From Eremomyces bilateralis CBS 781.70 (taxonomy: Eukaryota), in NCBI GenBank assembly GCA_010015585.1, contig ML975150.1: 64,000 nt of DNA. One strand, written 5' to 3'. Positions 14,201-28,944 of the stretch are shown piece by piece. Position numbers and translations under genes: made by a program. The first letter of the stretch is position 1. Every line of letters starts with the position of its first letter. The notes under the pieces were generated by a model, which had not been told where the DNA came from, ran no database searches, and was given only the letters and a program-made list of their open reading frames with translations.

Positions 14201-17186
14201 CGCGGGGTTCCAAAGACAGAGAAACGATCGGAGTAGATCCTATTGTTCCGAACCTCTACCGATTTCGAGCCGCATATGTTTGTCAGCAGGCGATGTCATT
14301 GATTCTAGAGTTGAGATCGGGAATGACGATTAGGATGAAAAGAGCTGGCCAGCAGGTGCAGAACCGGAGGAGGCTAATAACGTCAGTCAGCTTCAAATGG
14401 ACCCCAGGGTGTTCTAAAAACCTAGTAGAATCGGCCATATCCCGCCATTATGTCTGCTTTTTTCACGAGGCCGTTTGATGGCGCGGGTCATCCAGAATAT
14501 ACCTATCAGAGAAGCGTCACAACGCCAACTTTCTTAAATGGCAGCTCTATCTTCCACGCACATTCTTCATTAGTTCAAGCCAGTTTCTTCCAGGTTTCAG
14601 CATCATTTATGATGCTGTGATAAGTTCCATAGATGGCCCGCTGGATTCCCTCGTACCCGACCCTTGGGCCCCTGATCGTTGGATCTTTGATTCTCGTCGG
14701 GGCTGAACAATGAGATGGGTCTTCCATGTTCCATATCTTGGGTGTGACAAAGGTCCCCTTTTCTGAAAGTCTCCGAGCTCTATGGCCTTCGCTTTGTCCT
14801 GCCTTCTGAAGAGCATCGCGAGTCAGTAGACCTTTGACAATGTAGCTGCAGAGGAAGCACAGAGTGGGAAGAAGGGGAAGACACCCTGATTTTCCTGTGA
14901 AGGATCTGTGAAGCGATAAGTGGTGAAAAGTTCTCTTTTCCTGTGACTAGAAACCGGATTGTAGTAGAGTATAAGAATCCAAACATGAAGTGAAGGAGAA
15001 TTGACAGAAGGTCCGCAGCAGTGATGAGCTTCTACTGTGAACTTCTCGGACAAAAGATGATGAAGCGGTTATCGAATTACCACCAAAGTCTTGAAAACAC
15101 GCTCAAAACCATGTTTGCTATCGTCGTACTGACAATGGACATGTAACTGTGAAGTTGGGATGGCTACAATAGACATGTTCGTTGCGCAAAGCAGGCGTGC
15201 CAGCAGGAGTCATGAAATCTCGAGATATGCAATGCAGTCCTGCTCGCCTACTGCCAAGTTAATTCCCTTGGAACATTAAGAAACATTGCACAATACTTAT
15301 TACTTTGGTTAGGACGATGTGAGATGAAGGAGAGTTGATTTTGGAGGATTGGATTCAGGTTCTGAATCTCCAGTCTCACGTGCCTCTGCTGACTCCACCA
15401 CATATGGTACCATATTATGGATACCATACAGCCCACCCTTAATTTCCTATGTTAGAAGCAGATACATAGAGAAGATAGAAGGAGATAGAAAAATGGGGCA
15501 CAAGGCCACAAGGCACCAACGCATGTAATTAGTCAGCTTAGGTAGTTCCCCACATGGGGCCATGGGCCTCGCTGAGAGGCCTGACGGGCGTATGAATCTC
15601 TCTCTCTCTCTCACAGCCCACCCTGACAACCACACAATGAGCATCAACCCCGCCTCTTCTTCATCCATTTTTCATCAACGGTCAGTATCGTCATTTCGGC
15701 TTTGGGCCTCGGGACCACAAATTACTCTGAGGTTTCTTGATTGGTCTTCGTGACTTCTCTCACCGGTCATGGGCACCAGAACAATGATCCTCAACGCCTG
15801 GGGCAAGTCATTATGGAACTCCGCCACGAGAAGTTCACGATACCGATTGTTAACTGGATTCCAATTTTGAAGGCAACGACGGAGCATCCAACTAAATACA
15901 GTGTTATACGTTCGTGTGACGTGGTCAAGCAAGACAGAAGCTCGGGCATTGATAACGGTTGTTCGCCGTCGAGACTAAAAGGCAACTGTATTGCCTTAAT
16001 TCCCAACGTGCAACCTGTTTTTGGGCAGCAAGAAGAGAAGATGACATTATGCCTAGCATTATCTAGGTTGATTACAGATACCAAGTATTGCGGCATGTAT
16101 AGTTCATATTCCTTAGAAACAGTGTCTTTGTCCTTAACTGTTGTATCACTCAAAAGAGGCAATGAGGAGTATATCCGGGTTTAAATAATATCAGGCACTG
16201 GAGCGTAAGCTAGAGCTTGACACTCAATGTTACATTACTACAATGTACCAGGCATAGCAAGGTCTTGATGTCTATCGCGAGGCCGGCGGCTTTAACTATC
16301 CCCACGCTTGAATCGCCTCATCTTTCCTCACCAAACCACTGTCACGCGCGCTTGCGTTTAGGTTGCACGCTCGGTTTCCTTGATTTGCCCATCGAGTACC
16401 CTCTTGTTATCATTCGCTATTATCGCTACGGTGAGCTTCATAAGGTATCAAGTGACCTCTCTACTTTTAACCTTATTGCAGGTCAACGTATAGATACTCG
16501 GATTGAGCACTGTTCCGGCTTCTTTGGTGATACTGGGTCAAGTTTCCCTTGCTCCTTCTTTCATCATTGTCTAATGCCACTGTGGCTGAGCCGAGGAAAC
16601 CTGTGCTAATATGATTTGTTCGTGGTATTATTCCTATTTCCGCCTTGTTTCCTTGCTCATCGTCAGGCCATTGTTCTCCTTAATCCTCACTAGAGGTTCC
16701 TCATTTCTCCTTCTCACTCTTGCCTTTACTCACAGTAGCTCCGTTCGGTCAACGGCCTAGTATGGCTGTGCCACGGTCTAACGGGAGTTCCGATTCTTCC
16801 TACTCGTGCGAGGCATCGTGGACCCCACTCAGGAGCGAAGAACATCCTCATATGATCCCCAAACAGACGGCCTCGGGTTACAGAGATGAAAGACAAGAGG
16901 GAATCTGCCGGTGTCAGACAGTTGGCATCGTGAACTCCGAACAGGCAAGTTCTTCGCCTTTGAGCGAGGAATTGGAAATCTCCTACTTCTCGAAGTATTT
17001 AAATCCCCCGTGGACAGTCATGTTCTTCGTCTCTTTCATCATCCAGCTCAGCAGTACCTTCAGCAGATATCGCTTCACTTCTACACTCTCCTTGACCACT
17101 ATTAGGATCTTCAGTTGCATTGCCAATTTCCTCATCTAGACACCCTGTCGTGGTTATTCCCTCCAGATTTATGAACCATCTTCATC

Positions 17187-17336
17187 ATGGCTACATCCGT
17201 CTTCTCCGCCCCAGTATCTTTCGTCAATGATGTCTGGGTTTGCTGCAATTGTGGCAGTGCGAATCTCGATGCCAATTGTCCTGAGAAGTGCGGTGGCAAT
17301 TGCGACCACATTAAGTGTGGTGGGTGCTCGTCCTAG
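17187..17336 (+). CDS. Small Cys-rich putative zinc-binding protein, 49 aa (MATSVFSAPVSFVNDVWVCCNCGSANLDANCPEKCGGNCDHIKCGGCSS)
   Basis: Below the ORF-track cutoff. Good start context (CATC ATG G). WxCCxC...C...CxHxxCxxC pattern. An intron-like element 17336-17391 (GTACCG...ACTGAC...TAG) follows, and splicing it re-creates a TAA stop. Confidence 0.7.
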   Translation: MATSVFSAPVSFVNDVWVCCNCGSANLDANCPEKCGGNCDHIKCGGCSS

Positions 17337-18064
17337 TACCGTGACCTTCCTCCTTACTGCAATATAAGAGACCCAACTGACGACCCATTAGACGAATGCG
17401 AAAAGGAGGAGACCGGTTGCATGTAACCCGTTCAGTTCACGACTCGATTCGAACACCGTCTCCCCAGCATCCCTTTCTATGCCGGTCATTCCCACTCTTC
17501 CTTCAATCTTCGAGACCAACCCGCCCTGCTTCAGAGGTGGTATAGACTTTCGCTTTGTCTTCTTAGCTACTCCTCTGTTACGATTACGACTCGATCCCAC
17601 ATTTTACTTCGACTGAACTCCTTCGAGCTCGCACCACGCTGTCCCGATTGTTACTTTTATATCATCTTTTTGTCTCCTACCCCGTTCATTTAGTCATCCT
17701 ATAGCAATTTATTCTCCTCTGGAGCAAATCAAGCTTCATATTGGCATTATTCCGTACACAGACACCAACATTATGCGATGTAATATGATATATACCACCT
17801 ATCAAGTACCAGCCACACGGCGCTAATATTCCACACCCTCTCTAATAGTCTAATAAGCTCCCAAGCGGGCCCCCAAGGCAATCCTTTGAGATGGTGGCCA
17901 CATACCAGACCTTGATAACACTATCATCAGCCTGAGATGTAGTTTATAGGAATAGCTTCTCATTCCAATTTCTCTGAATGCCCTGTGGCTCCCTGTTGTA
18001 GTTTCGACAAGAGAGACTGTGATACATACCGCATGATTGACGCGAGACTGATTGGAGCGCCCGT

Positions 18065-18724: not shown

Positions 18725-19036
18725 TGCCGGGCCATACAAGGATGACCACCACTGCCACTAGCGGGATTGAAGGGCCTACGCCCAAGCAACGCAACGTATA
18801 CGTACAGTCAATACGAATAGCTATTTAATCCAAGGCACCGTTCAAAAGGGCCCTTTACCCTGTCAGAACTGTGCGAGATCCGTTCATTCCTATCAGATCT
18901 AACTAATCAACTCTTTTCGTCACTACTCATCCCTCTTCCGCCCACTACCTTCACTTAGTATTGGGCGCTTCGCTACATTTATCGGTTCGAAACCCATCTC
19001 AACTGTCTGCAAAATCAACAACATCATTCTGTTACC

Positions 19037-20458
19037 ATGGCGGAAAATCCGAGCCCCAAGATCCCTGAAGGTCAAGCTTCTGTTTTCGGTGGTCTTTCTC
19101 AAAGTCTTTCATTCCATTCCTCCCCCGAAGACTTCATCGCATCCCGCATTCAAGTCGTGGATCAAGCTCATCGAGCTGGCCCAGCTGTCATTCGCGCGAA
19201 GATTCTGAATAGAGACGTTGCCATAATTTCTTCCCACAGGCTGTGCGAAGGTGTTTTGCGAGATGGAAATCCAGATGATCCAGTAATCACAACCCAAGGG
19301 AGGATTCCACATCGAAACACCTTTACTGCGGGGTCGGCGTATCGACAACTCATGGCTGACTTCTTTCCCCCCCCTAATCTACTCCTAATGGACTATGACG
19401 ACCACTCAGTCAAGCGAGAATCCTGGGAAAAACATCTCTCATCATTTCACTCGGATGTTACTCCAACAATACACGACATTACAAACGACCACATCTCCAG
19501 TTGGACCAACAGCAGTCCAATTGATTTGTATGATTCACTGAAAAGTCTCTCTTGGCGGATTATTCTAGGCATCTTTCTCCAGCTTCAGCCAACAGACGAA
19601 TTGTACCCAACTATTCAATCGCTTCAGGAAACGCTACTACGAGGCCAGTTCTCACTACTCCCGATAGCCCTTCGAACTCCGTTCTGGCACTCCCCGCGTG
19701 CAAAAGGTCTCGAAGCACGCCAGAAGCTCCAGGCCCTACTCAAGGACCACATCGTCACACAGAGCACAGAATGTCCGTTTTCAAAGCCAGGAGATATCTC
19801 AAAAGACGAGTTAGCCACGCACAGTCTTCTTTTTACCAGTTCACTTTCCGTCAAGGCGCTGGCATCGCTTCTCACCGCAACCATTTTAAACTTGTTCATT
19901 ATGCCCGGTGAGTCGTCGTTGGCGTCTCGCGTTCGAGCTGAGGTTTCAAATGATTCTGCCCAAAAGCTTTTGAGAAGCATACTTCTCGAAACGGAGAGAC
20001 TGAGTCCTCCCATCGTGGGGGTAATGCGTCGAGTAAATCAAGAGGTGATACTCTTGGATCCACACAGCCAGCCGCCCTCCCGCATCCCAGCCGGATGGGA
20101 CGCGTGGTTGTATTTCAGCGGCGCCGCTCGAGATAGGACGGTTTATCCGGAGCCTGATACCTTCATTCCGGAGCGATATCTTGAGCCCGACATGACCAAA
20201 CCGGGATTTGCATTCGGACATGGGGCCAAGACTTGTCTAGGCAAACCCCTCGTTCAGCAGATTGTTATGACGGTGGCCCAGGCGATTTTGCAATCAAACA
20301 TCCACCTTGATGGGAATGTTCATGCCGCAGGCGTTCGAGGGTGGCTAGGTTGGGAGTCTGGAGTCAGTGCGGATGCTTTCGCGAGGGATTTGAAACAATT
20401 ACCTTGCCAGAGGCCAAAGGATCCGATTCATATTCATGTAGTACGTGATCAGATATGA
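19037..20458 (+). CDS. Cytochrome P450, atypical (no N-terminal membrane anchor, degenerate I-helix), intronless, 473 aa
   Basis: ExxR (LLETERLSPP), PERF-like (FIPERY) and heme motif FGHGAKTCLG. Confidence 0.92.
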   Translation: MAENPSPKIPEGQASVFGGLSQSLSFHSSPEDFIASRIQVVDQAHRAGPAVIRAKILNRDVAIISSHRLCEGVLRDGNPDDPVITTQGRIPHRNTFTAGSAYRQLMADFFPPPNLLLMDYDDHSVKRESWEKHLSSFHSDVTPTIHDITNDHISSWTNSSPIDLYDSLKSLSWRIILGIFLQLQPTDELYPTIQSLQETLLRGQFSLLPIALRTPFWHSPRAKGLEARQKLQALLKDHIVTQSTECPFSKPGDISKDELATHSLLFTSSLSVKALASLLTATILNLFIMPGESSLASRVRAEVSNDSAQKLLRSILLETERLSPPIVGVMRRVNQEVILLDPHSQPPSRIPAGWDAWLYFSGAARDRTVYPEPDTFIPERYLEPDMTKPGFAFGHGAKTCLGKPLVQQIVMTVAQAILQSNIHLDGNVHAAGVRGWLGWESGVSADAFARDLKQLPCQRPKDPIHIHVVRDQI

Positions 20459-20687
20459 TTGTTCGGGCTGACGAGATATCTTTTATGGTAGAGAAGAGTC
20501 CAATCTAGAAATTGAGGAGATATTCCATTAATTACTCTATCCTCGCAATCGAAGTAAGAGATGAATAATCTTGACTGAGCTGATTAAGGTTTCCACAGTA
20601 GAGGCAAATTTCGAGCGGCTGCATCTTCTGGATATACATTATTTTCACCGGCAAGAAAAAATGAGTCTATTGTTTGCTGATTTTTAG

Positions 20688-21618
20688 CTAGCGTACAAGA
20701 TACCGTCTACCAAAGTTTCTAATACCCAGAAGCAGCCATATTGTATTTGTGATGCCTATTGCACCTGTGCCAAACTGGCATGACCGGTGAAGGTGAAGAT
20801 AGGCATCGACAGCTGAACGTCCCGTTTGTCGGCCAAAAGCGTACAATATCCAATAAATAAGGTAGACACGGCACAAAGCATAGACAGACAGATAGAGAAA
20901 GTGCGATAAAGCTATGGTTCTAGTTCGAGAGGGACTGGATTTGACCAAGTACCAACGCAAGGTTCCAAAAGGGGTCCTACCGAGAAAGTATTAGTCTACT
21001 TTAGTAGATGTGCATGTAGGAAACTCAAGCAACGTACGACGCGTTCATAACCATCAGCATTAAGATGATTAGTATACCCTTCTCTTTCCCCCGGGCAATA
21101 TACCACTGCAACATCCCCAGTCCAACTAGGAGTCCACCATGGTGGTATCCCAGTATTCGCCAGTTGATTGCCTTGGTCAAACTTCCTTTGCCACACTGTT
21201 GGCTACGTAGGTACGCACCAATCAATAAGATCACAGAATCTTGGGCCAAGTATGCAGTCTCGATGGTAACCAGACTGTTTGCCAGTGTGGACCGCGCGGT
21301 AATGATGGAGGAGGAAGATCCACTTGAAATTTTGTTGATATTTTCACCGGAGATGTCAAGGCCAGATAGGTTCCCTATGGAGTCTACGGAGGAGCTGTTG
21401 GGTGGCATCCATTTATCGCGCTGTTTGTAGAGTTCATATATTGATGCGAGGGCCACGAAGGAGCAATGCAAAGCGGAGACAGCTTCCCGGGATTTGGAGA
21501 ATTGCAACGGAGAGGGTTTTCGGGGAAGAAGCAGACGAAAAGCAAGAGGGTAAATCAAGAATGATGCCAAAAACGATGTTGATTGAGAAACATTCCAAGG
21601 TTGAACTGAAGTGGCCAT
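20688..21618 (-). CDS. TLC (TRAM/LAG1/CLN8) domain membrane protein; exons 21618-21038 and 20976-20688
   Basis: Motifs VSALHC, TAYLAQD, LGYHH and, after splicing intron 21037-20977 (GTACGT...CTAAT...TAG), MNASTPFGTLRWYL. Also YALCRVYL and several hydrophobic helices. Confidence 0.85.
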
Positions 21619-21785
21619 TTCCTCCGATATTCTTTTGAAGAGGCTGTTTTGCCTTGCCCGGAGGTGGAGCGCAAAGTAGAATTGAGGAAAAATAAGACAG
21701 CCGTGTTCTCTCGAGAGGCTCTTGAAGTCAAATCGAGGAGTTTTAATTAATCCATGTCCATTGGTCCTAGCGAGAAACCACCACC

Positions 21786-22400
21786 CTACTTCAAGGATGA
21801 TACCAGAAATCGTACTCGCTGAGCAATGCCGAAAGCCACAGCTAAGCTCATGATCCATGACAAGTTACCGACCCATCCCGGCCATATAAGCATTATAGAA
21901 AACAATATACCGCTCTCAAAACCCTCGACCAACGCCGGGTACATAGAAACACTCGTCAACTCATCCGCTTTCGGTGTTCCTGCGGCAGCGGCATAAAACA
22001 GAACGAAATTATTGATGTGGAATGAGGTCTCGAGAACAGCAACAGCCAACCAGTCAAGATGAGTGAGTGTGTTACGCTGCTGGAACGCGATTGCAATTGG
22101 TAGAAGTGAGTAGACGATAAAGTCGCAGAGAAGATCAATGAAGCCGCCAAGTTCTGAAGCAATTCCCCTGCTCCTGGCCAGAGATCCGTCGAGGCTGTCA
22201 AGGGTTCGATTCAATAGCCATAGAACAATGGCGCATGGAAGTCGGTCTTGGGTGGTTGATAGTGACTGGGCAAGACAAGACCCTAATCCACAAGCAAAGG
22301 CAAGAAGTGTGAGAGAGTTTGGAGTTAGAAATGACGGGACTAGGGCACAGACTGGTTTGGCGAGAGTTTCTTTAGTGTGCCTCAACGCAAGGTCGAACAT
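21786..22400 (-). CDS. CDP-alcohol phosphatidyltransferase family protein (YnjF-like), intronless, 204 aa
   Basis: TPNxLT motif and the family signature DxxDGxxAR...GxxxDxxxD (DSLDGSLARSRGIASELGGFIDLLCD). C-terminal LVEGFES resembles the YnjF-type subgroup. Confidence 0.92.
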   Translation of the reverse strand: MFDLALRHTKETLAKPVCALVPSFLTPNSLTLLAFACGLGSCLAQSLSTTQDRLPCAIVLWLLNRTLDSLDGSLARSRGIASELGGFIDLLCDFIVYSLLPIAIAFQQRNTLTHLDWLAVAVLETSFHINNFVLFYAAAAGTPKADELTSVSMYPALVEGFESGILFSIMLIWPGWVGNLSWIMSLAVAFGIAQRVRFLVSSLK

Positions 22401-22640
22401 AGTGTGAAATTTGACTTTTGAGAGGTGATTCTGTTGAGAATCAAGATACCTCGATGTCCTTATGACGCTGATAGCCCCGCCGCTAGCCCTGCCTACAGCA
22501 AAGCAATAACTACTAGCTTACTGGTAACTATACGCCCCCTGTCGTAAGCATAATGCAGCAGCCGGGGATAGGAATCCTTCTGATTAGTCATATTTGCGAT
22601 TTATCCCTGACTATATTTTTCTAACATGGAAATCCACCTG

Positions 22641-22680
22641 CACTGAATTGCACTGAATTGTACTGAATTTCACTGAATTC
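22641..22680 (+). repeat. Four tandem copies of a 10-bp unit (consensus CACTGAATTG) just upstream of the hydroxylase ATG
   Basis: cactgaattg cactgaattg tactgaattt cactgaattc. Confidence 0.9.
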
Positions 22681-22706
22681 CATCACGTACTTCGAAGAAC
22701 ACCATC

Positions 22707-23771
22707 ATGATAATAGACAGTTCACCACTATGTCCATCTCAATCAGTATCATCCCTCTTTACCCTCCGTATCATTCTATTATTATTCCTGCTCACTACAA
22801 TCCTTATCCCTTGGCTGTATGATCGAATTCTCTCAAATGTCTACAGCTTCCTCGCTCAGTCAACCTTATACCGACTATCAATCTTCGAGACTCTGGAGAC
22901 TGTCTTCTGTTATGGGTATATTGAAGCCTCATTCATAACCCAATTCGTCCGCAACCCTTCTCTTCGCATTGATATCCGCCGTACATCAAAGGGAGCCGAT
23001 TCCGGATCCACACTCGAACATCCAAAACGACCACGAATGCGACGTCCATCTCGGCGCCTTTCTGAAGTTGTGCTTTATGTCGCCCCACTCTTGGTGCTGG
23101 ACTTCACCCTCGTGAAAAAATATGCCAATGTAAGCGTTGCAGACATTCGGCGCAGTGGCGGGTATCCGTCATTTCATGACTCCGTTGGCAGCAATTTCCT
23201 CGCCCCCAGCTTCCACAAGTTCTCCTTAACTTCTCCGCTCCAGCTATGGCGAGCGCTTCCCACGGAACCCCCAAGTAGCCGCAGACTTGTACTGGAGCTC
23301 ATCACTGCTGTCTTCATCTATGACGGGTTGTTTTTTTTCGCCCACCTTGCCTTTCACCGCATACGTTTTCTGGCATATTTCCATAAGCCACATCATCAGC
23401 ACGGCGAAATCCATCCACAAGTCACAGACCAGCTATCGGTTGTGGAGCGTCTCACGCTAGTCTTGCTCGCAAACTTTTCTCTCAATATCATTGGCGGCCA
23501 TGTTCTCACACGCACCATCTTCATTCCCGTCTTTGTGTACCTTCTCATTGAGATACACTCGGGGATGGATTTACATTTTGGATTTGAAAAGATACTACCA
23601 CAAGGCTGGGCTACCGGTGCTAAAAAGCATGCTCAACATCATCGAGAAGGGGATGGTAGCTTCGCGCCCTTTTTTTGTTGGTGGGATTATGGGTTAAGCA
23701 TTTGGGACGATTTTCGAAGAAATGTGCATCATGTAAAAAGACGACAGAAGAGGACTCTATCTTCAATATAG
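22707..23771 (+). CDS. Fatty-acid hydroxylase / sterol desaturase superfamily di-iron membrane enzyme, intronless, 354 aa
   Basis: His boxes HLAFH, HKPHH, EIHSG and HAQHH; C-terminal FAPFFCWWD. Confidence 0.92.
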   Translation: MIIDSSPLCPSQSVSSLFTLRIILLLFLLTTILIPWLYDRILSNVYSFLAQSTLYRLSIFETLETVFCYGYIEASFITQFVRNPSLRIDIRRTSKGADSGSTLEHPKRPRMRRPSRRLSEVVLYVAPLLVLDFTLVKKYANVSVADIRRSGGYPSFHDSVGSNFLAPSFHKFSLTSPLQLWRALPTEPPSSRRLVLELITAVFIYDGLFFFAHLAFHRIRFLAYFHKPHHQHGEIHPQVTDQLSVVERLTLVLLANFSLNIIGGHVLTRTIFIPVFVYLLIEIHSGMDLHFGFEKILPQGWATGAKKHAQHHREGDGSFAPFFCWWDYGLSIWDDFRRNVHHVKRRQKRTLSSI

Positions 23772-24071
23772 GACGATAGTGAGTTATTTGTTCTTGTGAA
23801 TTTGGACGGAGATATATAGGTCATGCTCCGAAAAACAAGGGCGATGAAGACTTCATGCGAACTATATACGATTGAATCCATACCAACTTACGCTGAACCC
23901 TCGATCATCTGTGATTACAAACCCCGGGCCAGCTGCTGTATTCCTGCCTTAATATTTTGAAGGTGAACATGGTTGAGCTATCGTTCTTTTGGTGCGATTT
24001 CATATGTATCCAAAAATATTCAGGGGTTGAGTGACGCTGTTGAACTTTTGAATTCAGGTCGCTGTCTGCTA

Positions 24072-25598
24072 TTATATTTTGTATACTAAGTTAAGAGTGA
24101 AAAGGACAATAACAAGCACTATCAGCACTCCAACCCCTATCCAGTGATTTCTCTTCCTTGATGTCTCTCTTCCTTCCATACCAGCCATGGAAATTGCGGA
24201 CCTTTTGATATCTGCCTTAACCAACGGAATGCATAAAGCGAATCCGATAGAGCTCAGAATATAGCCAAGAGGGATGATGACAGCAAGTATAATCTTTAGG
24301 CTCTGCGCATAGTTTTCGCTGTCCGGGTTCACTCCATCCAGTGCCAGACCAACAATCTCCGGGCCAGAGGAATAGATGAGCACCACAATTGCCGAATAAA
24401 TCGAAAATGCGAAGGTCTTGTACTTTGGAGGAAACAAAATGACTAGCAATCCATTTACTGGACCAAGCCATAGCTCCGCAGTAACGTATGCTGCCGCAAG
24501 GGTACCGTAAAGGACCTTTACGCCTGACTCTTTGTCTCCGACAAGTTCTCGTGAGAACACCATAAGAATGACAAAGACGCTGCTGAGCACTCCGCCCGCC
24601 GAGACGAGATAAAGTGGGGTAAGCTTCGTCTTGGGCCAGAGCGCTGACGTGACCAGGCCGCCAGAGAGGGATGTGGCAGAACCAACGACACCAACGATGA
24701 TGCCGTAAACCGAGGTGAGATTTTTCGTCTCGGGGTAAAGTTGTTGGAGATACCCGGGCATGTAGTAACCAAACACAACGCCTGACAGCGTCCGGACTCC
24801 CGCAGCAAGCGTATAGAGCCAGAAGGACCTCATAGATATGACGTAGTTCAGTGTGTTCCGAAACGATGTTCCCTGGCCATTTCCTTCTCCTTCTCCCTCG
24901 TCAGTCAGACTCCGTGCGATAGCGTCACGCCGTCGAGGTTCTTTCCACATGACCACACGTATAACAATTGCTAATCCGATTCCGAAGATGCCGACCCCCT
25001 TTAAAGCCCAACGCCAACTGGTCCCTGTCCTGCGGAAAACGGTCGAAATCTGACCACTGATGGCTTCACCGACATAGATTCCCATGTAAAGGACGCCTTC
25101 CCCCGTAGAGACGTATCTCCTTGGGCCCATCAAGTCGGAAATCAGGCTCACAGTCAAGGCTTCGACCGCACTTTGACCGATTCCCATTGATACCCGAGCA
25201 GTGGCTATTTGCCAGTAATTATGAGCAAGTCCTTGAAACACGACAGACAAGGACCACCATGCGATAGACAAGGTGAGTATCCACAAGCGCGCTTTAGAGC
25301 GATCGGCGATGGAAGCCAGAGGAATGGAAAGAATGGCAAATGATATTCCAGTGGCGTAACCCGAAAGAATGGCATATTCACTTGATGATATGTTAAGTTC
25401 AGTTGTGAGTGGGAGCTGAAAGTATGAAAGGATAAACCGATCGTACTGGGCGAGAAAGAAAGCCGTAAAGAGTAGTGCAACCGATATAATGGTATAAACC
25501 TGGGATAGATAGGAGGGATTCCTTGCGTCTCTCTGGACGCTGCTGTTAGGGGAATAAGGCAAGGCCATGCCACTTTGGTAAAGCTCCGATTTACCCAT
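24072..25598 (-). CDS. MFS transporter, spinster-like; probable start 25598 (the ORF is open to 25919)
   Basis: TM1 AQYDRFILS, IPLASIADRSKAR (motif A), ARVSMGIGQS, SLISDL, WRWA and KEPRR; about 12 or more hydrophobic segments; no intron needed. Confidence 0.9.
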   Translation of the reverse strand: MGKSELYQSGMALPYSPNSSVQRDARNPSYLSQVYTIISVALLFTAFFLAQYDRFILSYFQLPLTTELNISSSEYAILSGYATGISFAILSIPLASIADRSKARLWILTLSIAWWSLSVVFQGLAHNYWQIATARVSMGIGQSAVEALTVSLISDLMGPRRYVSTGEGVLYMGIYVGEAISGQISTVFRRTGTSWRWALKGVGIFGIGLAIVIRVVMWKEPRRRDAIARSLTDEGEGEGNGQGTSFRNTLNYVISMRSFWLYTLAAGVRTLSGVVFGYYMPGYLQQLYPETKNLTSVYGIIVGVVGSATSLSGGLVTSALWPKTKLTPLYLVSAGGVLSSVFVILMVFSRELVGDKESGVKVLYGTLAAAYVTAELWLGPVNGLLVILFPPKYKTFAFSIYSAIVVLIYSSGPEIVGLALDGVNPDSENYAQSLKIILAVIIPLGYILSSIGFALCIPLVKADIKRSAISMAGMEGRETSRKRNHWIGVGVLIVLVIVLFTLNLVYKI

Positions 25599-26450
25599 AT
25601 TGCCTATTGGATAGATGCACAATAGAGCAGTGTTGTAAAAGTGTGACGAAGGACGTGGAGACAAATGGGAAGTTAAGACTAAATACTTATCATTTACTGT
25701 CGCAGCGTTACGGTCACAGCATAGCTGCATATTGGAGAGAGAAGTTGGTGCAGGGCACGCAGGAATGGGATGATTCATGACTCTCGATATCGGCGACGAA
25801 GATACAAGGATCAAAAATCTACCGTGTACGATGTCCTCAGGCCGAACAGCCGGAAGCTGGCCGATGAAGAGCTTGAAGGTTGCGGTCTGCGGACAACTCG
25901 TGTCCCCCGTCCGAGCCATTTCGCCGATGAGTGGCCCGACTCATGACATCAATGGCCCAGATCAGACGGAAATCTCGTTCTGATCAATGGGAAAGTGATA
26001 TCGTGGCATCTTGGCTTTAGTTGATTCTTTCAAATGAAGGTTAGCGCAACCTTTAGTTAGAAGGAATACGTTATGCGCCCCTGGGACCTGTAGAGGAATA
26101 TGACCCTGGTTAGAAGGAATGAATAATACGCCCCTGGTCATGACAGAATTGATACGTGTGGGTCGGTCCCAGCTACGCGGGGAACAGGCGGGTCGGGGTC
26201 TGATTATCCTATTCCGGTCAGTGTCCATTTACGTTGGGACTAGGAAGGGAGGCTATCACGATCACAGGCTGACAGGCGGGAGAGGCCATCCTTTGGCGTT
26301 TGGACATGTCCCTTGGAAAAAACAAGCCATCGAGAAATTGTTGACCCTCTCGAAAGTCGAAACCTGTTCCACATGCTGATTCACAATCGGTTCACATTTG
26401 GATGCCAGCTGCCAAACTGCTCACTAACTATAGTTAGAGTAAACTAACTA

Positions 26451-26874
26451 ACGTATTCCACAAGCGAGTGGCCCATACAAGCGAGTGGCCCAGCTCATTT
26501 TACTAGTAAATTCGACAAAATTCGATATCAATATCTCAACAACCACTGGGTAATATAGTCTGAAAACTTAGAATTAGGTTTTCCTATCGATTTCTAGCTT
26601 ATTATTAGAATCTTAGAGCTTTATCTTTTAAAGTTATAAAGATATAGAGATTTGGTCTCTAAATCTTGCCAAGAAGTAGGTATCTCTATACCTGTAAAAG
26701 CTAGGGCTTTAATATTTCAATAGTAAGCTAGAAATGGCTAGGAAAACCTAACTCTAAGTTTTCAGACTATATTATCCAGTGGTTGTTGAGATATTGATAT
26801 CGAATTTTGTCGAATTTACTAGTAAAATGAGCTGGGCCACTCGCTTGTATGGGCCACTCGCTTGTGGAATACGT
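26451..26874. mobile_element. Non-autonomous Tc1/mariner (pogo/Fot1-type) MITE, 424 bp, flanked by TA on both sides
   Basis: TA|ACGTATTCCACAAGCGAGTGGCCCATACAAGCGAGTGGCCCAGC...GCTGGGCCACTCGCTTGTATGGGCCACTCGCTTGTGGAATACGT|TA. The first 99 bp of the arms are perfect inverted repeats, with imperfect pairing to about 190 bp. Each TIR carries a duplicated CAAGCGAGTGGCCCA. No ORF. Confidence 0.95.
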
Positions 26875-26980
26875 TAGGTACAAGCATGTTGACATTGCCG
26901 TTAGACAACATTAAAATAGTTAGAGGTTGAATAAATTATATGTAGGGGCGGCTAGCTAGCTACAGTCTCTCAATAATTAG

Positions 26981-27433
26981 CTATGGGTTTTTAATTGTAA
27001 GGTTGACCACTTTTTCCTCCCCAGCCCGCGTTTCCAAGAGTTGCAGGAAGTCCTCGTGATTCTTGCGTACACGAGCCAGATCCTCCCTCGTCAACAACTC
27101 CCTGAAGCCACCCTCTCCGGCAACAGAAACGACCACACTTGGCGAAGGCACTTTGTTCTCGCGCGTCCAAGTCTTCAACTCGATGGGCATTTCATCGCGG
27201 TGTACCTGTTGAACCGCAACTCCGTCGATTCGCGCTCTCGTCTTGACCCAATCCGACGACTCTTTCAGACTGAGCGATGGGCCGTGAGTGAGTTCGCAAG
27301 CGGCGCAGGCTGGGGATTCGTTTGGGTCCGGGCAAGTGACTTTGCGCTTCACGTAGGACAGCTTGCCGAGCATCGTGGAGTCGGCGTTGTAGATAATGTA
27401 GAGCGATTGGGAGGTGGTGGTACTGGCGGCCAT
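26981..27433 (-). CDS. Hypothetical 150-aa protein with YNAD and CxxC motifs (possibly thioredoxin-like fold)
   Basis: Intronless ATG ORF with coding-like codon usage; LYIIYNADS, CAACELTHG, W, VHRDE, PSVV. AT-rich TATA-like tract upstream at about 27580. Confidence 0.82.
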   Translation of the reverse strand: MAASTTTSQSLYIIYNADSTMLGKLSYVKRKVTCPDPNESPACAACELTHGPSLSLKESSDWVKTRARIDGVAVQQVHRDEMPIELKTWTRENKVPSPSVVVSVAGEGGFRELLTREDLARVRKNHEDFLQLLETRAGEEKVVNLTIKNP

Positions 27434-28944
27434 AACTTTTAGTGCTGAAGCTTGATTGATGAGGATTTTGTCTGGGTTGTGCGGGCGTTTTCCAAGGTTG
27501 GATGTGAGGTTTCAATGTTTTGGGGGGTAAACTGAAGTATATCTGGATCTGGGGACAAGTGATAAGAAGCAACTAGGTATTTATATCAAAACATGAGCGT
27601 CCGGTGACTGCGTCTTCGGGTGATTAGAATCTTTCCATTTGGTCATACGTCATAAGTTGCTGCTGCGCACAGTAAGACGCCTTTCAATATGTACTAATTC
27701 TTCAGCTTCTGAAACCCGACGAACGGATTCTATGGCGAGATGGCCTCTGAAAGGTAATGGTGGGAAGTGTAGTAACGGCGGCTATGGTTTTAGCAACTCG
27801 TCATGCAGAATCCAGCCTCACAGGACTAGGCGGATTATCCTATCCTAAATCCTGATCAGCCTCTGTTTACGGATACGTATACGGAGTAGAGTAATGCTGT
27901 GATAGCCTTCGTGCTCGGTATTCGCAGCTTGGTGGTGGATTACGTTAGTTAGCTGATATGATTAATAACTAACAGGGCACGCAGGTTGGCCTAGAGCAGG
28001 CCGCTCGTGATTGGCCAGTTAACGATAGAGCTCTAGGTATTCAGCACTTTCTCCACTCTGTACAACCACACGCGACACCACACGCGACATCATAAATCCG
28101 CGTTCTGCACCTGTCATGTTTCTATCGTACAATTCTGGAATAGATATTTTTTAATGATTAATCTTTATCTCATGCTTCAGGTACTCGCTAATAAATGTCC
28201 GAGACTGTGCTTTACAATGCTGCTTTCCAAAGGTTTCAGCGATGTCGCGTCTCCTCCTATCGCCTGATTGCTCCCAGTACTCTCAGGCTATATTCAACAT
28301 ACGCCCCTTTTTCTGCTCAGTCCATCGTCAGTCAATGTGTTCCATTAGGCTTCTATTTGTGACTTGAGCTTGCTTGTTCATGTTGACAGAGGAGTTTTTG
28401 AGTCAAGCGCCCAGGGCTCATCAATGTGCCCGACGCTCTGGTCGGCGCCCCAAAGGTCGGCGCCAAAGTCTACCTTGAATTGTCTTCACCAATGGAATCA
28501 GCCACCGAGATGGTTGTCCTCGGTGAATCGCCTGAAATGGGAAACCTACCACTACCTGAAACACTATCAACACATCGGATGTGCTGGAGGCCTGGAATAT
28601 GTCCCTCAGTATGTGTCTCACAGCCTCGATCACCGACTTGAGCCTCTCTTCTGTCTATAGAATCGATCGATATGGGAGTTGTAGGATTCGTAAAAAGTGT
28701 ACCCTTACTGTCAAGCCTCCTTCGCCTGCATAATGCATACAGCTCAGATGCCTCGCCGCAATCATGAAATATTGCAAGTCTAGATTTAAATAACGTACTG
28801 CCCAACTTGCTGATTTGAGATGATATTGCACATTTTCCATCTACCTCTTTTTGTTGCATGCATTTATTACTTAGTGGATAATTCCTTCTCTGAAACATAT
28901 TTCATGAGCATCTTTAGCGGAGACTGAGTCGTCCACCGTTCACA

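Follow-up and report, generated by a model that had tools for sequence, protein, structure and literature searches.

Fungal secondary-metabolite clusters that are centred on a backbone gene are compact, bring together P450, MFS and lipid-related enzymes, and are patchily distributed among fungi; the fumonisin cluster, with its TLC self-protection genes, is an example. The CDP-alcohol phosphotransferases that transfer inositol phosphate, such as archaetidylinositol-phosphate synthase, bacterial PIP synthase and IPCT/DIPPS (PDB 4mnd, 6wm5), share their fold family and catalytic motif with the fungal transferase described here. In the ydjXYZ-ynjABCDE-ynjF region of E. coli, a further member of this enzyme family, YnjF (206 aa), is paired with a transporter, with CxxC/redox proteins (the AhpD-like YnjA and the sulfurtransferase YnjE), and with DedA-family lipid-handling proteins. 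Finally, the bacterial arsenosugar set consists of ArsM, ArsS, TIGR04282 and TIGR04283. In this study, we analysed a stretch of 64,000 nucleotides (hereafter the window) of contig ML975150.1 of Eremomyces bilateralis CBS 781.70 (GCA_010015585.1), which carries a gene cluster comparable in part to these systems. Like the backbone-centred clusters, it is compact and patchily distributed; unlike them, it has no PKS, NRPS, terpene cyclase or pathway regulator, either in the window or at 12 related loci, and its anchor gene is a CDP-alcohol phosphotransferase, a phospholipid enzyme of the primary-metabolism type. The evidence tilts towards an accessory metabolic cluster of ascomycetes, whose core is a YnjF-family transferase paired with a divergently transcribed di-iron hydroxylase, and which would attach and modify an unusual head group on membrane lipids. 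The cluster is built around an enzyme family for which, to our knowledge, no function is known even in E. coli, and it has been kept together in many ascomycetes. Its features in the window are as follows.

19037-20458, plus strand: cytochrome P450, 473 aa (PF00067, 51.9 bits against a cut-off of 22.8)
21618-21038 and 20976-20688, minus strand: TLC-domain membrane protein, 289 aa, two exons with a 61-nt intron
21786-22400, minus strand: YnjF-family CDP-alcohol phosphotransferase, 204 aa (PF01066, 48.5 bits against a cut-off of 22)
22401-22706, no strand: spacer of 306 bp between the divergent transferase and hydroxylase genes, presumed shared promoter
22707-23771, plus strand: FA_hydroxylase-superfamily membrane di-iron oxidase, 354 aa (PF04116, 54 bits against a cut-off of 31)
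24072-25598, minus strand: MFS transporter, 508 aa from the ATG at 25598 (PF07690, 89.9 bits against a cut-off of 33.4)
26445-26880, no strand: MITE-like inverted repeat between the MFS gene and the sixth gene
26981-27433, minus strand: soluble CxxC protein, 150 aa, with an invariant PACAACELTHG motif

A preliminary description of this DNA had reported only the first five genes (19037-25598), and all of them were found on reading the window. Its approximate gaps of 230, 170, 310 and 300 bp agree with the spacers of 229, 167, 306 and 300 bp computed from the coordinates, and four of the five are indeed single ORFs, the lone intron lying in the TLC gene. This intron, which reads GTACGT..TAG, is confirmed by a spliced transcript contig: its two pieces join at 20975/21037, leaving out 61 nt that have CT..AC ends on the plus strand. 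The count of five and the right-hand edge at 25598 have to be corrected, since the conserved sixth member, overlooked at that time, lies beyond the MITE; the cluster reaches to 27433, and has six members here and seven elsewhere, the flavin monooxygenase (FMO) found at other fungal loci being absent from the window. As for the pseudogene and the MITE said to bracket the set, the latter was recovered as an inverted repeat with arms of 200 nt each (26445-26644 and 26681-26880) that are 92% complementary, the element matching itself in reverse at 88%. The left-hand pseudogene was not confirmed: the stretch is transcribed and spliced (a transcript contig removes an intron at 17336-17391), and the ORF scan of the window found neither a long ORF nor a Pfam match in it. 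The absence of backbone and regulatory genes was borne out by a domain scan of 32 large ORFs of the window, none of which carried a PKS, NRPS, terpene cyclase or transcription-factor domain. Transcript evidence comes from a single data set, stored as contigs, which cover 18840-20475 (P450), 21037-22415 (transferase, one contig), 24548-26003 (MFS) and 26945-27781 (CxxC gene); among the pieces listed, spliced contigs cover five of the six cluster genes.

A search around homologues of the transferase yielded 60 fungal loci, which fall into 26 groups at 95% nucleotide identity; 12 of these are non-redundant fungal metagenome loci with at least 5 kb on each side of the transferase. At these 12 loci, the transferase is accompanied by the MFS gene in 11, the hydroxylase (FAH) and the CxxC gene in 10 each, the P450 in nine, the FMO in seven and the TLC gene in five. 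With a threshold of 80 summed bits the P450 is retained in eight, TLC in four and CxxC in three, the last count falling because the CxxC exon is short. When the ORFs of 38 loci and of the window were all compared with one another, only the seven cluster families were common to at least 20 sources; the other ORF families at or close to this level were readings of the cluster genes in other frames or on the opposite strand. Certain sub-arrangements recur, with the FAH and transferase genes divergent, the P450 beside TLC and the FMO beside FAH. Adjacent locus tags are also found in named genomes, i.e., Xylographa opegraphella, X. soralifera, X. vitiligo and Acarospora, as well as Penicillium diatomitis (N7539_004458, _004462 and _004463) and Aspergillus tanneri (EYZ11_007785 and _007786), and the distribution as a whole is patchy, extending over lichen-formers, black yeasts, Leotiomycetes, Eurotiales and Lipomyces. 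The homologues are thus clearly linked in other fungi, and the juxtaposition of the cluster genes is not due to chance. The lower-GC, MITE-bearing and ORF-poor setting of the locus, together with the missing FMO, would suit chance neighbours or tailoring genes left over from a lost secondary-metabolite cluster, but synteny contradicts this explanation, which we regard as extremely unlikely: linkage is maintained at 10-11 of 12 independent loci at a protein identity of 47-56%, all six cluster ORFs are intact with their conserved motifs retained, transcripts are present and correctly spliced, and the 32 flanking ORFs with 230 aa or more at the 12 loci include no PKS, NRPS or terpene cyclase.

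The transferase carries the complete motif DX2DGX2ARX8GX3DX3D, the residues of which are invariant in the alignment of its homologues (A1). Its earlier designation as YnjF-like proved to be right, as it is homologous to E. coli YnjF over the full length, with 32% identity over 178 aa (E 3e-18) and a probability of 99.8 in profile comparison. Inositol-phosphate transfer is common to all its nearest characterised relatives, among them archaetidylinositol-phosphate synthase (8.5e-12), IPCT/DIPPS (6.3e-11) and PDB 4mnd (3.3e-6); however, it falls outside the equivalogs of archaetidylinositol-phosphate synthase, bacterial PIP synthase and IPCT/DIPPS, with scores of 45.3 against a cut-off of 180, 33 against 170 and 41.9 against 580, and neither a cytidylyltransferase domain nor an inositol-phosphate synthase is linked to it. 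Its scores on all the named NCBIfam synthases fall well short of the curated cut-offs. The hydroxylase gene adjoins it in 15 of the 24 groups listed and in the named genomes, and the divergent pair recurs at 13 non-redundant loci with spacers of about 190-1130 bp; the spacer is presumed to act as a shared promoter.

The hydroxylase itself has three His boxes (HLAFH, HKPHH and HAQHH), whose His residues are invariant across 27 sequences, and its model found no convincing relative among solved structures (best Foldseek E 4.2, best Z 3.9). The P450 retains an intact heme-binding motif, FGHGAKTCLG, shows no evident N-terminal membrane anchor in its translation, and has CYP120 (2ve3; E 7.3e-10) as its closest solved relative. 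Exon 2 of the TLC gene scores 22.2 bits on PF03798, just below the cut-off of 24.6; a homologue (L043:2455-3378) reaches 66.9 bits, and homologues share both its HH motif and the position of its intron. The CxxC protein has 27 homologues and no assigned Pfam family; its structure model (pLDDT 84.9) matches almost exclusively thioredoxin-fold proteins, albeit weakly (best Z 6.5), and its fold is therefore probably thioredoxin-like. The MFS transporter could also start at an in-frame upstream ATG at 25919, giving 615 aa; alignments with its homologues begin at about residue 5-38 of the shorter version. Its description as spinster-like is modestly supported: the sole solved match is 6e8j (E 2.2e-9), which we take to be a bacterial spinster homologue, but the likeness is confined to residues 34-219, in the N-terminal half. 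Among NCBIfam models, the MFS protein scores best on one of the anion:cation-symporter type, with 62.9 bits where the cut-off is 395.

Since the FA_hydroxylase superfamily includes sphingolipid hydroxylases, and insects possess a ceramide phosphoethanolamine synthase of the CDP-alcohol family, these genes could also be read as a sphingolipid-type pathway, with the TLC protein as N-acyltransferase, the di-iron enzyme as long-chain-base or acyl hydroxylase, the transferase as ceramide-phospho-head-group synthase and the MFS protein, whose only solved relative is 6e8j, as exporter. The TLC domain and its HH motif would be in keeping with this. TLC is, however, the least conserved member (5 of 12 loci), a homologue of it retrieved no ceramide synthase structure with an E value of 1 or below, and the transferase stands nearest to inositol-phosphate transferases, not to choline/ethanolamine phosphotransferases, with bacterial relatives from Gemmatimonadota and Chloroflexota; we therefore consider such a pathway very unlikely.

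In bacteria, the YnjF gene comes after a YnjB-type ABC importer at 24 of 52 loci, E. coli being a further case, and is itself followed by a class-I disulfide-reductase-like flavoprotein at 17 of 80; a set of transferase, transporter and redox protein thus recurs across kingdoms, with an ABC importer as the transporter in bacteria and an MFS protein in fungi. The remainder of the fungal set is not shared, as P450, TLC and thioredoxin-like genes were each found near none of the 80 bacterial YnjF loci, and the bacterial pairing of YnjF-like with sterol-desaturase genes that the preliminary description had suggested came down to an FAH-like neighbour at a single one. The fungal transferases form one clade in the tree, separate from the sampled bacteria, and hence a recent transfer of a bacterial operon is not indicated by the sequences.

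The proximity to arsenosugar genes, likewise suggested there, holds for one fungal lineage (L027, L028, L036 and L051), in which the cluster directly abuts an intron-bearing set of four such genes. They encode an arsenite-methyltransferase-like ArsM (NF008823, 194 bits) and a TIGR04282 protein (107.9 bits), both below the curated cut-offs, an ArsS in three exons matching positions 34-266 of the TIGR04167 profile, and a TIGR04283 glycosyltransferase above its cut-off (197.8 against 182 bits), on whose identity the Atlas concurs (0.97). The cluster might accordingly cover the lipid side of a pathway to arsenosugar phospholipids or arsenolipids, in which the YnjF-type enzyme would move phosphatidyl from CDP-diacylglycerol to arsenosugar-glycerol, the CxxC protein together with the FMO would interconvert As(V) and As(III), and the MFS protein would export the product. 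Chemically, the final arsenosugar-phospholipid step would be a CDP-alcohol-type transfer, calling for a transferase of the YnjF-like kind, and the fungal FMO has ArsO as its second-ranking NCBIfam family (E 1.4e-14), though again under the curated cut-off. Nevertheless, the link occurs in one of 26 locus groups, no arsenosugar gene being present in the window or the other 25 groups. Among bacteria, ArsM, TIGR04282 and TIGR04283 were found at none of the 80 YnjF loci queried, TIGR04283 exceeded its cut-off in none of five YnjF-bearing genomes, and YnjF-type or FAH genes occurred at none of 20 Chloroflexota arsenosugar glycosyltransferase loci. The lipid cluster is widespread, whereas the arsenic genes look rare in fungi, as the large Atlas clusters nearest to the glycosyltransferase are all bacterial. 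A literature search retrieved no paper combining "arsenosugar" and "phosphatidyltransferase". An arsenic-lipid pathway is thus unlikely as an account of the cluster.

For the favoured reading, that of an unusual lipid head group, we infer the substrate, the order of steps, the direction of transport and the product as follows. The transferase would use a CDP-activated donor, most simply CDP-diacylglycerol, and form a phosphodiester with an unusual alcohol acting as head group or acceptor; the FA_hydroxylase enzyme and the P450, elsewhere also the FMO, would oxidise the lipid or its head group, and the TLC protein may (re)acylate the lipid. The thioredoxin-like CxxC protein would supply or reset thiol-based redox, while the spinster-like MFS protein could carry a head-group precursor or the amphipathic product over the membrane. 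A literature search returned no experiment or paper tying these fungal genes, or YnjF, to a lipid. A fixed multi-step pathway is an over-simplification, because gene content varies, with TLC at five and FMO at seven of the 12 loci, and two groups with long flanks (L004 and L008) lacking the hydroxylase. P450, FMO and MFS would also fit a catabolic or detoxification cluster for uptake and degradation of an exogenous lipophilic compound, with import or export by the MFS protein, oxidation by the P450, FMO and di-iron enzyme, and the transferase only in a side role. Three types of oxygenase alongside a transporter, a patchy spread of the kind usual in accessory catabolic clusters, and the lack of a linked regulator or backbone gene speak for this, but the invariant core consists of an anabolic-type CDP-alcohol transferase and its hydroxylase partner, the dispensable members are the P450 and FMO, and no catabolic role is apparent for the TLC and CxxC proteins, which leaves the probability of this alternative very low. 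Within the cluster families, some members are joined in single proteins: the transferase is fused to an FMO-like domain in P0206, and an annotated fusion of the CxxC protein with the transferase is found in three Xylographa species.

Five adjacent lipid-type genes without a backbone gene had been placed in the window by the preliminary description, and all five are found where it put them, four by ORF listing and Pfam and the TLC gene by reading of the minus strand. The gaps between them, taken from the coordinates, are 229, 167, 306 and 300 bp. An inverted repeat fits the MITE of that description, and a further gene, which encodes a small CxxC protein, lies beyond it. The features of the region are as follows.

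19037-20458, plus strand: P450 (ORF listing and Pfam)
21618-21038 and 20976-20688, minus strand: TLC-like gene in two exons, with a GTACGT...TAG intron (minus-strand reading)
22400-21786, minus strand: CDP-alcohol phosphotransferase, hereafter the transferase (ORF listing and Pfam)
22707-23771, plus strand: FA_hydroxylase-family enzyme, hereafter the hydroxylase (ORF listing and Pfam)
25598-24072, minus strand, with a longer ORF from 25919: MFS transporter (ORF listing and Pfam)
26445-26880: MITE-like inverted repeat with 200-nt arms
27433-26981, minus strand, beyond the MITE: CxxC protein of 150 aa (all-vs-all ORF comparison)

The claim that a backbone gene is lacking was borne out, as PKS, NRPS, terpene cyclase and transcription-factor domains were all absent from the 32 window ORFs scanned with Pfam. 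The outlying genes of the window are housekeeping in character, and include F-box/LRR, FIT, Ras/Rab-family GTPase, AMP-binding enzyme, SET, histone deacetylase and DUF3405 genes. Fungal cluster finders seek scaffold enzymes, and a lipid cluster free of a backbone is therefore left unannotated. A search of the full-text literature with the gene combination and the locus tags found no paper on this fungal cluster.

The association of these genes is conserved well beyond the window. Metagenome contigs were scanned with an alignment of transferase relatives, and 60 loci were returned. They come largely from one metagenome assembly series and are partly redundant; clustering the transferase gene at 95% nucleotide identity leaves 26 groups, 12 of which have at least 5 kb on both sides. 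When the five window proteins were used in tblastn searches, the same neighbours were found repeatedly around the transferase. In the 12 well-flanked groups, the hydroxylase is linked in 10, the MFS gene in 11, the CxxC gene in 10, the P450 in 9, a flavin monooxygenase (FMO) in 7 and the TLC gene in 5; if 80 summed bits are required, the P450 is linked in 8 and the TLC gene in 4. The hydroxylase gene next to the transferase is divergent in 14 groups and co-oriented in 1. An all-vs-all comparison of ORFs from 38 loci and the window returned exactly seven families common to at least 20 sources, a count that excludes readings of the same genes in other frames or on the opposite strand. These are the five genes of the preliminary description together with the CxxC protein and the FMO, so that its count of five was too low, the CxxC gene being present in the window itself. 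Adjacent locus tags for cluster genes occur in three Xylographa species and Acarospora, and the tags in Penicillium diatomitis (N7539_004458, _004462 and _004463) and Aspergillus tanneri (EYZ11_007785 and _007786) agree with such linkage. Judged by protein matches and metagenome contigs, the cluster is widespread, occurring in lichen-forming fungi, black yeasts, Leotiomycetes, some Eurotiales and Onygenales, and Lipomyces.

The flanks differ among the 12 loci, and none of their 32 flanking ORFs of at least 230 aa encodes a scaffold enzyme (PKS, NRPS or terpene cyclase). A backbone-centred secondary-metabolite cluster has such an enzyme linked to it, whereas the lipid cluster is without one both in the window ORFs and in these loci. 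One locus, L004, carries after the transferase a GFO/IDH/MocA oxidoreductase, an O-methyltransferase and a weak 3-dehydroquinate-synthase-like ORF (26.2 bits, below cut-off) at L004:10824-15860, which may represent a neighbouring cluster of the sugar-phosphate-cyclase type. Two different locus groups also have a gene for a SLAC1/TehA-type anion channel no more than 10 kb from the cluster (L011:1412-2155 and L029:19665-20594).

The CxxC protein has 27 homologues, carries an invariant PACAACELTHG motif, and matches no Pfam or NCBIfam family. Its C43-A-A-C46 is invariant in 19 sequences and is placed at the start of helix 44-50 in a structural model (pLDDT 84.9), the fold matches of which are weak and mostly to thioredoxin-fold proteins (best Foldseek match a thioredoxin, E 0.014; VIA Z 6.5, SoxS and Trx2). 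In three Xylographa annotations, a 343-aa protein has the CxxC protein at its N-terminus and the transferase at its C-terminus, and either a genuine fusion or a merged gene call could account for this. The FMO, an FMO-like protein of ~530 aa, lies beside the hydroxylase in 7 of the 12 loci. It has left no trace in the window at E up to 10, and loci L012 and L029 retain pieces of it; thus, cluster members have been lost differently between lineages. The repeated linkage leaves a chance juxtaposition, or a relic, as a very improbable account of the gene set.

The transferase scores 48.5 bits against PF01066 (cut-off 22), and its motif DX2DGX2ARX8GX3DX3D is complete, with D68, D71, G72, A75, R76, G85, D89 and D93 invariant or nearly so in 15 sequences. 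It shares 32% identity over 178 aa with E. coli YnjF (BLASTP, E 3e-18), and a profile of bacterial relatives (A4) aligns to YnjF by hhalign with a probability of 99.8 over 192 columns; by sequence comparison, E. coli YnjF is thus a full-length homologue of the window transferase. A search of 1.84 billion representatives with a profile (A1) recovered 113 relatives at E<=1e-30; the majority have ~200 aa and match nearly end to end, and one is from a ciliate. A word-indexed search gave 255 relatives, of which the named ones are all ascomycetes at 47-58% identity: the lichen-formers Trapelia, Candelaria, Lasallia, Xylographa and Acarospora, together with Cadophora, Exophiala, Cryomyces, a Penicillium, an Aspergillus and Lipomyces. 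Among the sequences from the profile search, a predicted protein of 572 aa (P0206) fuses a YnjF-type transferase with an FMO-like flavoprotein domain. Another, of 1140 aa (P0226), joins such a transferase to a TonB-dependent-receptor-like region and may be a merged gene call.

The best characterised relatives of the transferase all transfer to inositol phosphate. The NCBIfam models for PIP synthase, archaetidylinositol-phosphate synthase and DIPP synthase gave 45.3, 33 and 41.9 bits against curated cut-offs of 180, 170 and 580, respectively, and since these scores are so far below the cut-offs, assignment of the transferase to any of the three was rejected. A literature search on YnjF and the ynj/ydj genes found no function for YnjF in print. 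A rapidly built tree had 60 rows, of which 15 were fungal, 1 was from a ciliate, 30 were bacterial and 14 were unlabelled representatives; other bacterial loci and representatives were omitted. In this tree, the fungal transferases form one clade (SH-aLRT 100), which has the ciliate row and some of the unlabelled ones as its neighbours and is separate from the bacterial group; as the tree is unrooted, it shows no donor.

The hydroxylase scores 54 bits against PF04116 (cut-off 31), and its His-box residues H213, H217, H226, H229, H230, H308, H311 and H312 are invariant in 27 sequences. Its relatives bear the automatic source names 'cholesterol 25-hydroxylase(-like)'. A sequence search against the PDB gave no real match, and the model (pLDDT 80.8) has weak fold matches (best Foldseek E 4.2, best VIA Z 3.9), including a weak one to the Scs7p hydroxylase domain (Z 3.1 over 140-142 residues). 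Exon 2 of the window TLC gene reaches 22.2 bits against PF03798, just below the 24.6 cut-off (E 1.5e-4, at the end of the domain), and exon 1 is unmatched; a homologue at L043:2455-3378, with 32% identity to the window protein, scores 66.9 bits, and the HH motif of the protein is conserved. When a single-exon TLC homologue was searched with phmmer against all PDB chains, no TLC protein, and hence no solved ceramide synthase, was matched at E up to 1. The only PDB matches of that homologue were to DDI1, and were rejected as spurious. A sphingolipid-type pathway is quite unlikely.

The P450 scores 51.9 bits against PF00067 (cut-off 22.8), and its translation contains the heme-thiolate motif FxxGxxxCxG as FGHGAKTCLG. 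The MFS protein scores 89.9 bits against MFS_1 (cut-off 33.4) and has a single PDB match, 6e8j (E 2.2e-9), which we take to be a spinster homologue and which is the sole basis for the putative spinster assignment. That these oxidative enzymes and the transporter, standing beside the transferase, make up a catabolic or detoxification cluster is improbable.

When bacterial genomes were scanned with the A4 alignment, 491 YnjF relatives were recovered; of the best 80, 49 belong to Gemmatimonadota, 28 to Chloroflexota and 1 to Pseudomonadota, and 2 have no assignment. Enough flank is available at 52 bacterial loci, and 24 of these have, upstream and in the same orientation, genes for a YnjB-type binding protein and an ABC ATPase. 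The two ABC permeases occur in 29 and 30 of the 52, and the binding protein scores 402.7 bits against NF008633 (cut-off 203). A disulfide-reductase-like flavoprotein follows the YnjF-type gene in 17 of 80 loci, and 8 of the 80 contain a DedA/VTT protein. The fungal partner genes are absent from these 80 loci, except for one hydroxylase-like neighbour. Where bacterial YnjF genes have a YnjB-type ABC importer beside them, the fungal loci have none and are linked to the MFS gene instead. In E. coli K-12 (1833401-1841403), ynjF adjoins the run ydjX-ydjY-ydjZ-ynjA-ynjB-ynjC-ynjD-ynjE, which comprises two DedA proteins, a ferredoxin-type protein, an AhpD-like CxxC protein, an ABC importer and a sulfurtransferase, and echoes the transporter-plus-redox theme of the fungal cluster. 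A trio of transferase, transporter and redox protein recurs in bacteria and fungi.

It is very likely that the cluster genes function jointly, given their conserved linkage and intact motifs, two links of the fusion type and the trio that recurs. On balance, they appear to serve membrane-lipid chemistry, as the families suggest. Such chemistry would comprise head-group transfer, oxidation, acylation and transport, the donor, acceptor and product being inferred. The cluster connects the orphan YnjF family with five families of lipid-type enzymes and transporters and with a CxxC protein that is uncharacterised, and could lead to a membrane lipid or head group that is new.

In one fungal lineage (L027, L028, L036 and L051), the order P450, TLC, hydroxylase, transferase and CxxC protein is followed directly by four arsenic genes.

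L036:9492-14653 (also in L027, L028 and L051): arsenosugar gene set, fungal and intron-bearing, adjoining the lipid cluster

These genes encode an ArsM-like (arsenite-methyltransferase-like) protein, TIGR04282, ArsS, which is split by introns into at least three exons, and a TIGR04283 glycosyltransferase. The last scores 197.8 bits against a cut-off of 182, and the other three are below theirs; Atlas agrees on the glycosyltransferase, and its nearest large clusters there are all bacterial. ArsM, TIGR04282 and TIGR04283 were not found by tblastn in the window (E<=1e-4), and the remaining fungal loci and all 80 bacterial YnjF loci were likewise negative for them. TIGR04283 exceeds its cut-off in 0 of 5 YnjF-bearing genomes and in 36 of 401 Chloroflexota genomes, and no YnjF-type or hydroxylase gene lies within the 10-kb flanks of 20 Chloroflexota TIGR04283 loci. 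Since it occurs in one lineage only and is absent from the other loci and genomes examined, the arsenosugar link is a lead and not a rule, and an arsenic-lipid pathway is an unlikely reading of the cluster. A literature search joining arsenosugar and phosphatidyltransferase found nothing bearing on function. The arsenosugar-linked lineage could reveal a route of arsenic into phospholipids.

A broader and similarly doubtful proposal is that the YnjF family, from E. coli to fungi, transfers phosphatidyl (or related) groups to head-group alcohols that are imported or made locally and contain a redox-active heteroatom (for example arsenic, sulfur or selenium). If so, the fungal cluster would supply the lipid-anchoring half that is missing from a synthesis of the arsenosugar-phospholipid type, and the lineage in which ArsM, TIGR04282, ArsS and TIGR04283 are joined to it would hold a complete pathway. 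The orphan E. coli gene family would thereby gain its first function, and the last, so far unknown, enzyme of arsenolipid formation would be named.

One public sequencing run contains 69% of the sampled words, and its RNA label is a guess; its contigs are spliced and so derive from RNA. In one contig the TLC intron is precisely excised and the sequence continues through the transferase gene to 22415, and others cover the P450, MFS and CxxC genes. The hydroxylase has low-depth bins, and none of the listed contig pieces covers it. These contigs indicate presence and splicing only, depth being no basis for ranking genes or for co-expression.

Several minor observations concern the surroundings of the cluster. 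A second, solo terminal-repeat-like copy of the MITE lies at 27918-27952, with 77% complementarity to 26444-26478, so that the CxxC gene is bracketed by the MITE and this copy. Loose transcript-contig ends occur at 26449, 27921 and 27951, as expected if other MITE copies are transcribed elsewhere. A TGACG-type 7-mer (ATGACGC / ACGTCAT) occurs in 5 of 14 hydroxylase/transferase spacers (window 22401-22706 and 13 loci), a raw count. At ~15700-17703 on the plus strand, a stretch previously called a pseudogene lies under a 1958-nt transcript contig from which a 56-nt GT..AG intron (17336-17391) is removed; its ORFs are short, in different frames and without Pfam matches. Few long ORFs are present at 11.3-19 kb, and the G+C content of 12000-33000 is 0.41-0.51 per kb, below that of most of the remaining window (up to 0.63).
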